The position numbers and the translations under genes were made by a program. 34,425 nt of DNA from Gemmatimonadales bacterium (lineage in GTDB: Bacteria > Gemmatimonadota > Gemmatimonadetes > Gemmatimonadales > GWC2-71-9), in assembly GCA_036560625.1 (NCBI GenBank), contig DATBQV010000372.1:1-34425 (forward strand), read 5' to 3'. Every line of letters starts with the position of its first letter. Within the stretch, counting starts at the first letter, position 1. Of the stretch, positions 12,060 to 15,789 are shown in pieces. The notes under the pieces were generated by a model. That model ran no database searches. It worked only from the letters and a program-made list of their open reading frames with translations, and was not told the DNA's origin.

Positions 12060-12231
12060 CGCGAGTCTCCCGTGAGGGTGTGGAAACCGTGCGTGCCTGC
12101 GAAGGAGCGAATCCAGACGAATCCGACGCCCATCAAAGTATGACGCTTTTCTCCCACGGCAATAGGGCGCGCCACTGATCGCCCCGCGCACGGTAGCCGG
12201 AGCGGCGGCTGTGGGGCCATATTTTAGGCAT

Positions 12232-13533
12232 ATGTCCCCCCCCTCCTCCATCGGCCGTTTGGCGATCCCGCTGCTCGCGGTCGGTACCATCATCGTGGTC
12301 GCGGCCGCCCTGCGCCGTCCACAGACCGGACTGGCGCCGCGCCACGCCGATCGGCCGGTCTGCGCCGCCGGCAATGGCGGGCTCACCGTGCCGAGCGGTC
12401 TCTGCGCCCTCGTTGTGGCGAAGGGACTCGGCCACGTTCGCCATCTCGTGGTCGCCCCCAACGGCGATGTCTTCGCCAACGTGGACGGGCGCGGCATCGT
12501 CGCGCTCCGGGACACCTCCGGTGACGGCGTGGCCGACATCATTCGTCAGTTCGGCAGCTCGGGCGGCACCGGCATCGCCCTCACGGATCAGTATCTGTAC
12601 TACAGCACCGACGACGCCGTGTACCGGTATGCGTGGACCAACGGGCAGCTGGAGCCGACCGGCTCCCCGGAACCGATAGTCGCGGGTCTGCCCTCCAACG
12701 GCAATCACACCTCCAAGAGCATCGCGCTCGACCTGCAAGGCAACCTTTTCGTCAACATCGGGTCGGCCACGAACAGCTGTCAGGAGCAGAACCGCGCCGC
12801 CCGTTCCCCGGGGCGGGATCCCTGCGTGGAGCTCGAGACCCGGGCTGGGATCTGGCGCTTCGCCGCCGATCGTCCGGGACAGCGATTCGCCGACGGCGAG
12901 CACTGGGCCACCGGACTGCGGAACACGGTCGCTCTTCGGTTCGACGCCGTCGACGGCGCCCTCTACGGGGCGATTCACGGCCGCGACCAGCTCGGCGCCA
13001 ACTGGGGGTACACCAACGAGCGGAGCGCGGAGAACCCCGGCGAAGAGTTCGGGCGCATCGACCGGGGCGACAACTACGGGTGGCCGTACTGTTACTACGA
13101 CGTCGATGCCCGCGCGATGGTCCTCGCGCCCGAGTATGGCGGCGACGGGAAGGACGTGCGCCGCTGCACGACGGCGAAGCCGCCGCTGGCGGTTTTTCCG
13201 GGCCACTGGGCTCCGATGGCCCTCGCATTCGGCCCCGCCCGCGCGATGGGGAGCACTTACGACGAGGGCGTCTTCATTGCGTTCCACGGCTCGTGGAATC
13301 GCGCCCCGTTGCCGCAGGCGGGCTACCGTGTCGTGTGGCAACCGCTGCGGGGCGGCGTTCCGTCGGGCCCGTACCAGACGATCATGCGGGAGACCTCGGA
13401 CCCGACGGGTGTCCGGCCCTCGGGCCTCGCGATAGGACCGGACGGCTCGCTGTACATCGCCGCCGATGCCAATCAAACGATCTGGCGCATTCTCAGCGAT
13501 TCGGGTGCCGCGCGCACCAGGGAGGGCACATGA
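12232..13533 (+). CDS. PQQ-dependent sugar dehydrogenase / sorbosone dehydrogenase-family beta-propeller protein with an N-terminal membrane anchor or signal
   Basis: A hydrophobic N-terminus (IGRLAIPLLAVGTIIVVAAAL) is followed by family-typical stretches: GHVRHLVVAPNGDVF, NHTSKSIALDLQGNLFVNIGSATNSC, ATGLRNTVALRFD, GDNYGWPYCYYD and FHGSWNR. The start is ATG 12232, with GTG 12211 as an alternative. Confidence 0.8.
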   Translation: MSPPSSIGRLAIPLLAVGTIIVVAAALRRPQTGLAPRHADRPVCAAGNGGLTVPSGLCALVVAKGLGHVRHLVVAPNGDVFANVDGRGIVALRDTSGDGVADIIRQFGSSGGTGIALTDQYLYYSTDDAVYRYAWTNGQLEPTGSPEPIVAGLPSNGNHTSKSIALDLQGNLFVNIGSATNSCQEQNRAARSPGRDPCVELETRAGIWRFAADRPGQRFADGEHWATGLRNTVALRFDAVDGALYGAIHGRDQLGANWGYTNERSAENPGEEFGRIDRGDNYGWPYCYYDVDARAMVLAPEYGGDGKDVRRCTTAKPPLAVFPGHWAPMALAFGPARAMGSTYDEGVFIAFHGSWNRAPLPQAGYRVVWQPLRGGVPSGPYQTIMRETSDPTGVRPSGLAIGPDGSLYIAADANQTIWRILSDSGAARTREGT

Positions 13534-14108
13534 GCTTGGCACGATGGGCCGGAGGAGTCGCGGTAGTCTTGGCGGCCGGGGCGACTCCGGGAGCAGCACA
13601 GGCGCAAACCGGCTCGGAGCAGGGACCGGCCGTCGGCCAGCCGGCACCCGACTTCGCTCTCGTTCCCGCGACCCGCGCGGGTGTCGGCAAGAAGCCCGTG
13701 CGGCTGTCGAGCTTCAAGGGCAAGACCGTCGTCATTGCCTTCTTCTACAAGGCCCGAACCAAGGGCTGAACCATCCAAATGAGCGCGTACCGTGATCAGT
13801 ACGCGACCCTGTTCCACGGCGGGAAAGATGTCGTCCTGCTGGCGATCAGCGCCGATGTCGCCGACACGCTTGCCGCCTGGGCGAAAGACGCGGACTTCCC
13901 GTTCACGTTCTTGAGTGATCCGATCGGTGCGGCGGGGCAGCTGTACGGGGCCTGGCTGCCGGAGCATCAGCTCGACAACAGGAGTCTGTTCGTGGTGGGA
14001 CCGGACGGGAAGATCGCCTACAAGGCGACACCCTTTCGCGAGGTGGACCCGCAGGCCTACACCGAGCTTGGCGAGGCCGTCACTCGCGTGGCTCGGAAGC
14101 GGAGCTAG
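13530..14108 (+). CDS. Exported BCP/PrxQ-type peroxiredoxin with an in-frame TGA (13767-13769, codon 80) at the peroxidatic-Cys position. Candidate selenocysteine-containing protein.
   Basis: The ORF-track frames ending at 13769 and starting at 13779 are the same frame. Read-through gives ...KTVVIAFFYKARTKG-[TGA]-TIQMSAYRDQY...LAISAD...FPFTFLSDP...LFVVGPDGKI. This is collinear with the BCP motif FYPKxxTPGCTxQ...LRD. The N-terminus MSLARWAGGVAVVLAAGATPGAAQAQ looks like a signal peptide. ATG 13530 overlaps the upstream stop (ATGA) and follows GGAGGG. Confidence 0.75.
13784..13805 (+). promoter_or_regulatory. SECIS-like hairpin downstream of the in-frame UGA
   Basis: CGCGTAC (13784-13790) and GTACGCG (13799-13805) form a perfect 7-bp stem around an 8-nt loop, CGTGATCA, which contains G and U residues. 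The stem starts 15 nt after the UGA, and the loop starts 22 nt after it. Confidence 0.5.
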
Positions 14109-14289
14109 GCGGGACGTACCGCTCGAAGTACGGGTTCTCCGACTCGGGCCCGCTCGTCGGCTTCGGCCGGCGGCGGGCCCGCAGCTTGTACGCCGCGTAG
14201 CTCGCCGCCGCCAGCGCCGCCGTCACGGTGACGGATACGACGACGATGATGGCGAGCAGGGTGTTCAGGCTCATCTCGATGAGCGGCAC
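14080..14289 (-). CDS. Small single-pass membrane protein (hypothetical, 69 aa)
   Basis: GTG 14289 sits 4 nt downstream of a strong SD-like GGGGAGGGG (minus-strand reading of 14292-14300), immediately after the upstream gene's TAA (14302-14304). One hydrophobic helix (LLAIIVVVSVTVTAALAAASYAAY) is followed by KLRARRRPKP. The 3' end overlaps the convergent peroxiredoxin gene by 29 nt. Confidence 0.5.
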   Translation of the reverse strand: MPLIEMSLNTLLAIIVVVSVTVTAALAAASYAAYKLRARRRPKPTSGPESENPYFERYVPPSSASEPRE

Positions 14290-14301: not shown

Positions 14302-15789
14302 TTAGGCTGGCTGCGCGCGCACAAAGGCGCGAATCCACTCCTCTTCCGCCGGATACCCGAACGTCTCAACCGCGATATCGTCGGCCGCGACGCCGCGCCA
14401 CTCGTCGTGCAGCCGGCCCAGGAACGCCGTCAGGTCCTTGGGCCGGGCCGCGTCCAGATAGAGCAGCACGCTCCGCCCCTCGAAGCCGACCAGGTCGCCC
14501 GTGGCCATGCGGCTCGTCCGCAACGCGAGGTCGGCGAGCGCCATCACGTCGCCGTTGCCGGGCTCGGCCCGGGCCACCGTGAAAAACGGCGCGCGCTCGC
14601 GCGCGAGGTGGAGCCCGACCGCCTTCCGGAACTGGGCGCCGTCGAGCAGCAGGTACGACTCGCCGTCCGTCGTCGGCTGGAGAATGAGCGGCGCTTCGGA
14701 CTCGGCGTCGGGAGTGTGCTCCGACCCGCCCCGCTGGGCGATGCTCTGCACCCGGGCGATGAATTCTTCGGGCTGGAGGTTGGTGGACAGGCAATCGTCG
14801 GCGCCCGCCCGGAGCGCGCGGGTCCGGTCGCTGGAACGCAGCTGATAGTTGGTGACGACGACGATCGGGATGGTGCTCTTGGCGGCGCGTACGTCGCGAA
14901 TGAGCTGGCGCGCGTCCTGGATCACGTCTCGTCGCACATTGAGCAACAGCACGCCGGCTTCGCCGTGCACGAGGTCGGATGAGGCGCCCGTCACTCCGGT
15001 GCGGACGATCACCGTGTGGTCGCGCTCCAGCAGGCGCAGCAAGTCGCCCGGGAACGGATCCGCGAGGCTGAGCACGAGCAGCTTCCGCTGGACGTCCGGC
15101 GAGGGCGGCTCCGCCGGATCGTGCACCGGGACGAACCCGGCGCCGGCCTGGATTCGGAACGCGATCGGGCCGAGCGACTTGGCCTCATACCGGAGTTTCC
15201 GGATCTCGAGCGTCCCGTCACGCCGGGCCTGGTTGCGGCTCGCGAGGTGGAAGACCCCGGCGGCCCGCTGCACCAGCGGCTCGAGCCGCGCATCGTACAG
15301 CCCCGCGAGATCGCCGGGATACGTGAGCATCGTCGTGGCGCCGAGGTCGTCGAGCAGGTGGATCAAGGCGAACACGGCTGCGCCGCCGCTCTTCCCGCCC
15401 TCGAGGGCCGGCACGATCGAGTCGATCGCAAGCCGCACCGGCGTCCGCGGACCGAGTGCGCGCCGGAACTCGGCGAACACGGCCTCGGCGCTCGGCGCGC
15501 GCGCCGCGAGCCGCACGAAGTTGGGCCGGTATCGGACGAGGACAAACCGCTCCTCCACCAGCGCCCGCTGCAGGTCGATGCCGAGAAACGCCGCGGAGGA
15601 GAGCACGTCGGTGGGATCGTCGTGCGTGAGCAGGGCCGCAACCTCGCCGCGCTCCAGTGCGACGTCGAGAAACTCGAGACACGACACACTCTTGCCCGTT
15701 CCGGCGCTCCCGCTCAGGAGATACGCCCGCCCGGGCAGGAGTCCGCCCACCAGATCGTCGAGCGGGACGATCCCGCTTTGAATCAGCAT
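14302..15789 (-). CDS. Multidomain protein: KaiC/RecA-like ATPase domain, pseudo-receiver (REC-like) domain and an unassigned C-terminal domain
   Basis: N-terminus: GGLLPGRAYLLSGSAGTGKSVSCLEFL (Walker A in a KaiC/RadA context) and VRLAIDSI (Walker B-like). Middle: a CheY-like pattern (KLLVLS..., GVLLLNVRRD, PIVVVTNY, GADDCLS) that lacks the acidic pocket, the phospho-acceptor Asp and the conserved Lys. The ATG overlaps the thrC stop (ATGCTGA). Confidence 0.75.
   Translation of the reverse strand: MLIQSGIVPLDDLVGGLLPGRAYLLSGSAGTGKSVSCLEFLDVALERGEVAALLTHDDPTDVLSSAAFLGIDLQRALVEERFVLVRYRPNFVRLAARAPSAEAVFAEFRRALGPRTPVRLAIDSIVPALEGGKSGGAAVFALIHLLDDLGATTMLTYPGDLAGLYDARLEPLVQRAAGVFHLASRNQARRDGTLEIRKLRYEAKSLGPIAFRIQAGAGFVPVHDPAEPPSPDVQRKLLVLSLADPFPGDLLRLLERDHTVIVRTGVTGASSDLVHGEAGVLLLNVRRDVIQDARQLIRDVRAAKSTIPIVVVTNYQLRSSDRTRALRAGADDCLSTNLQPEEFIARVQSIAQRGGSEHTPDAESEAPLILQPTTDGESYLLLDGAQFRKAVGLHLARERAPFFTVARAEPGNGDVMALADLALRTSRMATGDLVGFEGRSVLLYLDAARPKDLTAFLGRLHDEWRGVAADDIAVETFGYPAEEEWIRAFVRAQPA

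Follow-up and report, generated by a model that had tools for sequence, protein, structure and literature searches.

We examined a 34,425-nt contig of a Gemmatimonadales bacterium (DATBQV010000372.1, assembly GCA_036560625.1), here called the window and meaning this whole stretch of DNA (G+C content 69.4%), and in it a peroxiredoxin gene at 13530..14108 (+) that contains an in-frame TGA at 13767-13769. A sequence-only reading of the window had proposed that this gene encodes an exported peroxiredoxin with selenocysteine (Sec) in the place of the catalytic, or peroxidatic, Cys, and that it would be annotated as two open reading frames (ORFs) or as a pseudogene. Comparison with its relatives makes it very likely that the UGA is a genuine Sec codon in a functional exported peroxiredoxin.

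The frame that opens at the ATG at 13530-13532 reaches the TGA and then continues in the same frame until the TAG at 14106-14108, giving a full selenoprotein coding sequence (13530..14108, +) of 192 codons including the Sec codon, with no second stop and no frameshift. The sequence reads as first described, both in resuming the same frame after the TGA and in carrying no other lesion. The read-through peptide is ...VVIAFFYKARTKG-[UGA]-TIQMSAYRDQY..., in which the UGA (13767..13769, +) would be read as selenocysteine U80 at the peroxidatic position, and the masses computed for the product are about 20.2 kDa for the precursor and about 18.0 kDa for the mature protein. A Shine-Dalgarno-like element, AGGGAGGG, lies at 13519..13526 (+), 3 nt 5' of the ATG at 13530, while no comparable element was found ahead of the ATG at 13779, where the ORF list places the start of the 109-codon ORF (13779..14108, +) that gene callers annotate instead of the full gene.

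Directly upstream, the same list gives a TrAA12/GSDH-type gene (pyrroloquinoline quinone-dependent sugar dehydrogenase-like; 12211..13533, +), whose orthologue in the contig L001 matches Pfam PF22807/PF07995. L001 belongs to GCA_964519805.1, an uncultured Gemmatimonadaceae metagenome-assembled genome (MAG), and is collinear with the window, with 92.3% nucleotide identity over 20 kb. The stop TGA of the dehydrogenase-like gene (13531-13533) shares bases with the start codon of the peroxiredoxin gene and, given this ATGA overlap, the two genes are probably co-transcribed and translationally coupled.

Conservation of the in-frame UGA

The comparison was based on 165 sequences, namely the window, four contigs and 160 scan loci, of which 80 came from a scan of species-representative genomes, nearly all of them Gemmatimonadota MAGs, and 80 from a metagenome scan seeded with Cys forms. 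The active-site codon was TGA in 157 of the 165 and TGC or TGT in 8, almost all from Gemmatimonadota, and the TGA forms came from at least 80 species-level genomes as well as from metagenomes. Such a recurrence of TGA at one column is far beyond chance. A protein search returned full-length relatives of about 190 residues, 55-72% identical to the window protein, that carry ...AFFPKARTxGCTxQM... and have their single Cys at the column of the UGA, in agreement with the earlier placement of the UGA on the peroxidatic Cys. The alignment of orthologues that the sequence-only reading had proposed as a check thus gave UGA at this column in orthologues and Cys in more distant homologues. The nearer relatives (81-94% identical) were all fragments of 109-110 residues starting at the Met four codons past the UGA, the pattern to be expected of gene callers that meet a conserved in-frame stop, and orthologous contigs are split likewise into 79 and 109 residues.

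In every locus the frame was open on both sides of the UGA, with a conserved VGxxAPDF...GKTVVLAFF[Y/F]KARTxG upstream and conserved sequence downstream. Among 148 distinct Sec-form genes, the ratio of non-synonymous to synonymous differences (pN/pS) was 0.33 upstream of the UGA (42 codons) and 0.41 downstream of it (100 codons), while synonymous divergence was near saturation (pS 0.52-0.57), which indicates purifying selection on the protein sequence of both halves; conservation 3' of the UGA, which had also been put forward as a check, was undiminished. The in-frame codon was TGA in 150 of 150 distinct genes, whereas the true terminator of the same genes was TAG in 87, TAA in 33 and TGA in 30. 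An ordinary stop would interchange with TAA and TAG and is therefore excluded. Since TGA terminates the same gene in 30 genomes, and also terminates the window's upstream gene, a genome-wide reassignment of this codon is excluded as well. One TGA form (L041, QHWJ01000199.1) was found in a MAG labelled Acidobacteria gp6, for which a binning error or a horizontal transfer is possible.

A hairpin downstream of the UGA

RNAalifold, pair counts and synonymous-site constraint together delimited a hairpin of the selenocysteine insertion sequence (SECIS) type at 13784..13805 (+). It is separated from the UGA by a 14-nt spacer (ACC AUC CAA AUG AG, 13770..13783, +), which contains a CAA codon specific to Sec forms, and consists of a 5' arm CGCGUAC (13784-13790), a loop CGUGAUCA (13791-13798) and a 3' arm GUACGCG (13799-13805). 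The stem thus has 7 bp and the loop 8 nt, with 21 nt from the UGA to the loop and a free energy of -9.4 kcal/mol alone and -10.7 kcal/mol in context. The loop opens C-G-U, with a G at position 2 and a U next. The published model of the bacterial SECIS (bSECIS) has an apical loop of 3-9 nt and an upper stem of 4-16 bp; a G at loop position 1 or 2, mostly with G or U after it; a distance of 16-37 nt from the UGA to the loop; and a minimum free energy of -7.5 kcal/mol or lower (PMC13188914). The hairpin at 13784-13805 lies within all four constraints.

When RNAalifold was run on 80 distinct sequences, it predicted exactly the 13784-13805 helix and nothing else. All seven pairs were formed in all 80 sequences, so that each of the 560 pair cells held a standard pair. 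The closing pair was CG in 39, UA in 32, GC in 8 and UG in 1, and was never broken (n=80); its two bases each fall on the third position of a codon, for a variable residue in one case and for Ala in the other. None of 500 shuffles matched the observed covariation or pairing, and every register shift collapsed. The other six pairs and the loop were invariant in the Sec forms despite spanning synonymous sites: codons +6 to +11 read GCG TAC CGT GAT CAG TAC, five of them in 148/148 distinct Sec genes and GAT in 144/148, CGT and GAT being unexpected codon choices for a genome of 69% G+C.

The Ala-Tyr...Tyr-Ala peptide encoded by the stem is also kept in Cys forms, and their DNA therefore serves as a control. 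For the same residues the Cys forms use TAC/TAT, CGC/CGT/CGG and GAC/GAT (Fisher p from 2e-4 to 2e-9 as compared with Sec forms), and the full seven-pair hairpin was present in 0/10 of them. In a rare relative with Tyr and Cys (L167/L168, codon TGC) the hairpin is dismantled and the peptide altered, the codons being ACC TAC CGC GAC CGC TAC CCC. The CAA at codon +3 (window 13776-13778) was found in 135/150 Sec forms and 0/10 Cys forms (Fisher p = 1.4e-9), and CGA for Arg at codon -4 (window 13755-13757) in 84/148 Sec forms and 0/8 Cys forms. Both of these Sec-specific codons sit outside the hairpin, where a role in the UGA context or in keeping the spacer unstructured is possible. An extended lower stem that would include the UGA was considered and dropped, given that conservation is limited to the local 7-bp hairpin; RNAalifold over positions -30 to +96 gave no helix beyond it.

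The sequence-only reading had made its case depend on conservation of a downstream hairpin among UGA-containing orthologues. This hairpin is kept in every UGA form, shows compensatory change, fits the bSECIS model and decays in Cys forms. With its frozen synonymous sites, its one compensatory pair and its decay once Sec is replaced by Cys, it would be a textbook RNA element within a coding region.

Mis-annotation of the gene

The conserved TGA is reflected in current annotations. Among the best 120 database homologues, 21 are fragments of 109-110 residues named 'peroxiredoxin' or 'redoxin domain-containing protein'. Trp at the Sec column was rejected as a real substitution: in P0046 (L165:484-486) the Joint Genome Institute (JGI) call is Trp and the DNA is TGA, translated with genetic code 4. 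P0073 also has Trp at this column, the DNA having been verified for P0046 only. A Leu was recorded at the Sec column in P0048 (TTA, L166:332-334), which comes from a 1.6x-coverage contig with the hairpin and the CAA codon intact, and likewise in P0005; the TTA of P0048 was not taken as a real substitution, a read error being probable and a recent inactivating mutation possible. Systematic mis-calling of this kind would make an active enzyme invisible in soil metagenome annotations.

Fold and catalytic residues of the predicted product

When the UGA was translated as Cys, the product matched Pfam AhpC-TSA (PF00578) with E = 8.9e-28 and 97.2 bits (cut-off 26) over residues 35-164, a match that spans the UGA. 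The scores of the NCBIfam equivalogs were all below their cut-offs (PrxU NF040737, 58.4 against 270; Bcp NF006960, 55.5 against 140; PrxQ NF053650, 44.5 against 260), and those of AhpC and Tpx were likewise not reached. By sequence, the nearest solved relatives were Sulfolobus Bcp-type proteins and AhpE of M. tuberculosis.

As a stand-in for the window protein, we modelled the structure of P0021, a natural Tyr+Cys homologue 57-61% identical to it, with AlphaFold (mean predicted local distance difference test score, pLDDT, 89.2; predicted template modelling score, pTM, 0.81). Residues 1-30 of the model had low pLDDT and no secondary structure, and Cys81 was placed at the first turn of helix 79-90 (alpha-2), after the strand TVVLAFF. 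A Foldseek search with this model returned only peroxiredoxins as its top matches in the Protein Data Bank (PDB), with Bcp4 at rank 1, AhpE at rank 3 and Bcp1 at rank 4, although AhpE showed both a higher identity (31-33%) and a higher template modelling (TM) score (up to 0.88) than Bcp4 or Bcp1.

The mature protein contained no Cys in 148/148 Sec forms and exactly one in 80/80 Cys forms, where this sole Cys aligns with the UGA column. A resolving Cys five residues after the peroxidatic Cys is typical of BCP/PrxQ proteins, if not universal in them. At the corresponding position, U+5, the Sec forms had Asn (69), His (50), Asp (19), Glu (8), Arg (1) or Ser (1), and never Cys. As its mature form is free of Cys, the predicted window protein is a 1-Cys-type (here 1-Sec) peroxiredoxin that would need an external reductant. 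Two further candidate catalytic residues are conserved: Thr77 (ACC, 13758..13760, +), the Thr of the TxxU motif (T77-K-G-U80), is Thr in nearly all sequences and Ser in two, and Arg151 (AGG, 13980..13982, +), which corresponds to the catalytic Arg conserved in peroxiredoxins, does not vary in alignments A1, A4 and A5. The label BCP/PrxQ, which had been assigned from the active-site motif, is therefore no more than approximate: Bcp4 and Bcp1 are among the nearest folds, while the scores fall below the Bcp and PrxQ cut-offs, the resolving Cys is missing and AhpE is equally close.

The motif residue and Sec/Cys switching

At the Pro position of the PxxxTxxC motif the window protein has Tyr73 (TAC, 13746..13748, +), and so departs from the canonical Pro. 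Codon and residue counts across the loci showed that this departure goes with the UGA: in the 157 TGA forms the residue was Tyr in 78, Phe in 78 and Pro in 1, while it was Pro in 8/8 TGY genes, and 92 full-length database homologues combine Pro with Cys. The exceptions were single cases, namely L141 (TGA+Pro), P0021/L167 (Tyr+Cys) and P0090 (Phe+Cys). The pairing of Tyr or Phe with Sec, as opposed to Pro with Cys, suggests an active site tuned for selenium.

The Sec forms were not recovered as one clade, and a neighbour-joining tree instead interleaved Pro+Cys and aromatic+Sec clades, with 11 Fitch changes, including artefacts; its internal branches were very short and poorly resolved as to the number and direction of switches. 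In addition, a Cys form (P0001) is 71% identical to the window protein, while many Sec forms are just 55-60% identical to it. Since the clades interleave and P0001 outranks many Sec forms in identity, the motif residue and the Sec/Cys site may have switched together more than once.

A broader reading is that these proteins form a distinct, phylum-wide subfamily of extracytoplasmic 1-Sec peroxiredoxins, with an active site remodelled for selenium and a Pro-to-Tyr/Phe change that was co-switched several times; we put this forward tentatively, as a proposal somewhat short of even chances. If it is true, selenoprotein use would have a large and unrecognised reservoir in the Gemmatimonadota, a soil phylum that is abundant and mostly aerobic, and the Pro/aromatic pair would constitute a natural experiment on the catalytic pocket of a selenolate as compared with that of a thiolate.

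Predicted export and gene neighbourhood

The sequence-only reading had described the protein as exported. A predicted signal peptide of the general secretory (Sec) type, MSLARWAGGVAVVLAAGATPGAAQA, is encoded at 13530..13604 (+), with cleavage, judged by eye, after AQA and before QT. A hydrophobic N-terminal segment (best 12-residue Kyte-Doolittle mean >1.5) was present in 95% of 144 Sec forms, a result of a hydropathy heuristic that agrees with that description.

The gene neighbourhood provides independent support for an extracytoplasmic location. A TlpA-like thioredoxin gene and a CcdA-like gene lie directly downstream, in convergent orientation, each in 74 of the 107 loci with enough downstream sequence (examples are L018:3481-4700 (-), L060:3534-4741 (-) and L167:3573-4588 (-)). 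The TlpA-like protein has a signal or anchor segment and WATWCPxC, and the CcdA/DsbD-type membrane protein has TPCIYP...APCGAP. A CcdA/TlpA pair is a standard route of reducing power into the periplasm, and the neighbourhood makes the adjacent pair the likely reductant system in most relatives.

The window's sub-clade departs from this arrangement, with the TrAA12/GSDH-type gene upstream, as in 23 of the 125 loci with enough upstream sequence, and a 69-codon ORF and a KaiC-like ATPase gene downstream. In P0003, from a 1961-nt contig, the C-terminus of a TrAA12-type dehydrogenase is fused in frame to a Cys-form peroxiredoxin that has no signal peptide of its own. Together with the gene overlap in the window, this fusion hints at a functional link between the two proteins in the window's sub-clade.

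On the opposite strand, this ORF (14080-14289, -), which is predicted to encode one membrane helix, shares 29 nt with the 3' end of the peroxiredoxin gene; it is conserved, with 58-94% identity, in 12 loci of the window's sub-clade and annotated as a gene in L001-L004. It is followed by a gene for a KaiC-like ATPase of 495 residues (14302-15789, -; Pfam PF06745 in the L001 orthologue), which is a neighbour in 7/107 loci. According to the Pfam labels of their orthologues, other genes of the window include a glycogen-metabolism cluster (GH57, glycogen synthase, phosphorylase) and a gene for a SWIB-domain protein, as well as thrA-thrB-thrC-like genes, pntAB and a sigma-70 factor.

Discussion

Taken together, these results point to the following mechanism. 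Translation would begin at the ATG at 13530, probably coupled to that of the TrAA12/GSDH gene through the ATGA overlap, and at the UGA the ribosome would insert Sec rather than terminate, the hairpin with its loop CGUGAUCA acting as a bSECIS that recruits SelB with Sec-tRNA(Sec). The 192-residue precursor would be exported by means of its N-terminal signal peptide to give an 18-kDa periplasmic enzyme, in which the selenolate of U80, activated by Thr77 and Arg151, would reduce peroxide and become selenenic acid. An external thiol protein would then recycle the Cys-free enzyme; in most relatives this is likely to be the adjacent TlpA-like CxxC thioredoxin, fed by the CcdA/DsbD-type membrane electron carrier. 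Tyr in the place of the motif Pro would tune the active site for selenium.

Several observations weigh against the assignment of the UGA as a Sec codon in an exported enzyme. Neither the 34-kb window nor 858 kb of DNA from relatives yielded selA, selB, selC or selD: the window had no tRNA and no Rfam family at the gathering score, ARAGORN detected no tRNA in any of the 165 sequences (its control was positive), and scans of the 858 kb for signature motifs of SelD, SelB and SelA returned nothing. The TlpA/CcdA pair is also absent from the 34-kb window, and the support for export consists of the hydropathy heuristic and the gene neighbourhood. As regards the hairpin, the 81 nt around the UGA, folded whole, were no better than shuffles (z = -0.88), and there was no Rfam family match, a permissive Rfam scan of 13700-13900 giving matches at chance level only; bacterial SECIS models in Rfam are few and lineage-specific. 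Furthermore, six of the seven pairs are invariant, so that formal covariation is confined to a single pair, and the stem overlaps the conserved peptide AYRDQYA. What carries the case for the hairpin is therefore the constraint on synonymous sites, together with the control provided by ten Cys-form sequences.

The selenium machinery of the phylum was assessed from published data. Both selA (K01042) and selD (K01008) occur in a fraction of 0.864 of Gemmatimonadota MAGs (PMC8938466, Source Data Fig. 3a), a value consistent with 19/22 MAGs in another supplementary file of the same study. These figures are at the level of the phylum and stem from marine hadal-sediment MAGs, with selB and tRNA-Sec not split by phylum.

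Among the alternatives to Sec, a selenium-free recoding is very improbable, the UGA being either reassigned (to Trp or Gly) or decoded by hairpin-stimulated near-cognate read-through (as Trp, Cys or Arg). This explanation draws on the negative outcome of the searches for Sec machinery, on the Trp that some pipelines give under code 4 (P0046, P0073) and on the ability of hairpins 3' of stop codons to promote read-through. It conflicts, however, with the use of TGA as a real terminator, both of the same gene in 30/150 cases and of the window's upstream gene, and with the catalytic Cys that occupies the column in homologues, where Trp, Gly or Arg would abolish activity. The hairpin, moreover, fits a SECIS of the SelB type in its loop size, in the GU at loop positions 2-3 and in its spacing; the correlated change from Pro to Tyr or Phe implies that the inserted residue is chemically unlike Cys; and many Gemmatimonadota carry selA and selD (PMC8938466).

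That the locus holds two genuine genes, or a split protein made of a 79-residue exported peptide and a 109-residue C-terminal redoxin starting at the ATG at 13779, is less probable still. This ATG, 9 nt past the TGA, is conserved, and many database entries have 109-110 residues; yet the same Met is equally kept in unsplit Cys forms (TxQM) and so belongs to the fold, and the ATG has no Shine-Dalgarno element. The downstream piece would have no signal peptide, no catalytic residue and none of the first strands, the hairpin with its compensatory change would have no role, and a plain stop would interchange with TAA or TAG, where TGA was observed in 150/150. The least probable explanation, to which we assign almost no weight, is a pseudogene or a sequencing or assembly error, in which a Cys codon (TGC or TGT) had mutated to TGA and left the gene dead. 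TGA is indeed one substitution from either codon, gene callers do split the gene, and the TTA at this codon in one relative, from the 1.6x-coverage contig, shows that errors or mutations do happen. The comparative data nevertheless already refute this explanation, given that the identical TGA occurs in 157 sequences of independent assemblies, that neither half is damaged or frameshifted and purifying selection acts on both, and that the codon is never TAA or TAG.

A Sec codon is thus the reading that we favour, and it bears on where selenoproteins are expected. Aerobic bacteria rarely retain them (PMC13188914); in contrast, the selenoenzyme proposed here would be kept in a common soil phylum, in at least 80 species-level genomes, and soil selenium availability would thereby be linked to oxidative-stress defence in Gemmatimonadota. 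The literature that we searched, including Peng 2016 and BSepDB 2026, was silent on selenoproteins of Gemmatimonadota, and BSepDB (2026), which surveyed 64,762 genomes for known selenoprotein families, may already list Sec-peroxiredoxin genes from this phylum. The coupled Pro-to-Tyr/Phe change, the absence of any Cys and the adjacent CcdA/TlpA pair make up a testable system for the question of why Sec is used over Cys.

The closest known system is the selenoprotein family described as 'Prx, PF00578, TxxU', which is experimentally founded on PrxU of Eubacterium acidaminophilum (Sohling et al. 2001; via PMC13188914) and has predicted members in Deltaproteobacteria and Clostridia, with documented Cys-to-Sec conversions (Zhang et al. 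2006, PMC1794560; PMC13188914). The window gene shares with this family the AhpC/TSA fold, a predicted Sec in the place of the peroxidatic Cys in a TxxU motif, a putative SECIS in the coding region just past the UGA, and the coexistence of Cys-form homologues, with Sec/Cys switches in the phylogeny. It is not a PrxU orthologue, however, as its score against the PrxU equivalog shows (58.4 bits, cut-off 270). PxxxTxxU has been described as highly conserved in Sec-peroxiredoxins (PMC13188914), whereas the window's clade has [Y/F]xxxTxxU, no resolving Cys and a predicted signal peptide, and its hosts are Gemmatimonadota, largely of soil, rather than anaerobic deltaproteobacteria or clostridia.

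Among the Cys-based enzymes, AhpE of M. tuberculosis (PDB 1xvw, 4x0x, 4xih), the closest solved structure by both identity and TM-score, resembles the window protein in having a single redox residue, no resolving Cys and a need for an external reductant; unlike it, AhpE is cytoplasmic and retains the motif Pro, and their identity is about one third. The BCP/PrxQ proteins (E. coli Bcp; Sulfolobus Bcp1/Bcp4, 3drn/3hjp; S. tokodaii 2ywn), which gave the top Foldseek and phmmer matches, are likewise small peroxiredoxins with a VGxxAPDF-like N-terminal start, from which the window protein differs in its predicted export, in scoring below the equivalog cut-offs and in never having Cys five residues after the peroxidatic position. 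As to the source of electrons, the CcdA-like and TlpA-like genes that adjoin the relatives recall the periplasmic reducing pathways of CcdA/DsbD and TlpA/ResA, with the differences that the pair is convergent with the peroxiredoxin gene instead of co-oriented, that the window does not contain it and that the electron link is suggested by the neighbourhood. By its predicted product the gene therefore belongs to a known kind, the Sec-peroxiredoxins, and differs from its known members in phylum, in export, in having no resolving Cys and in its aromatic motif residue.

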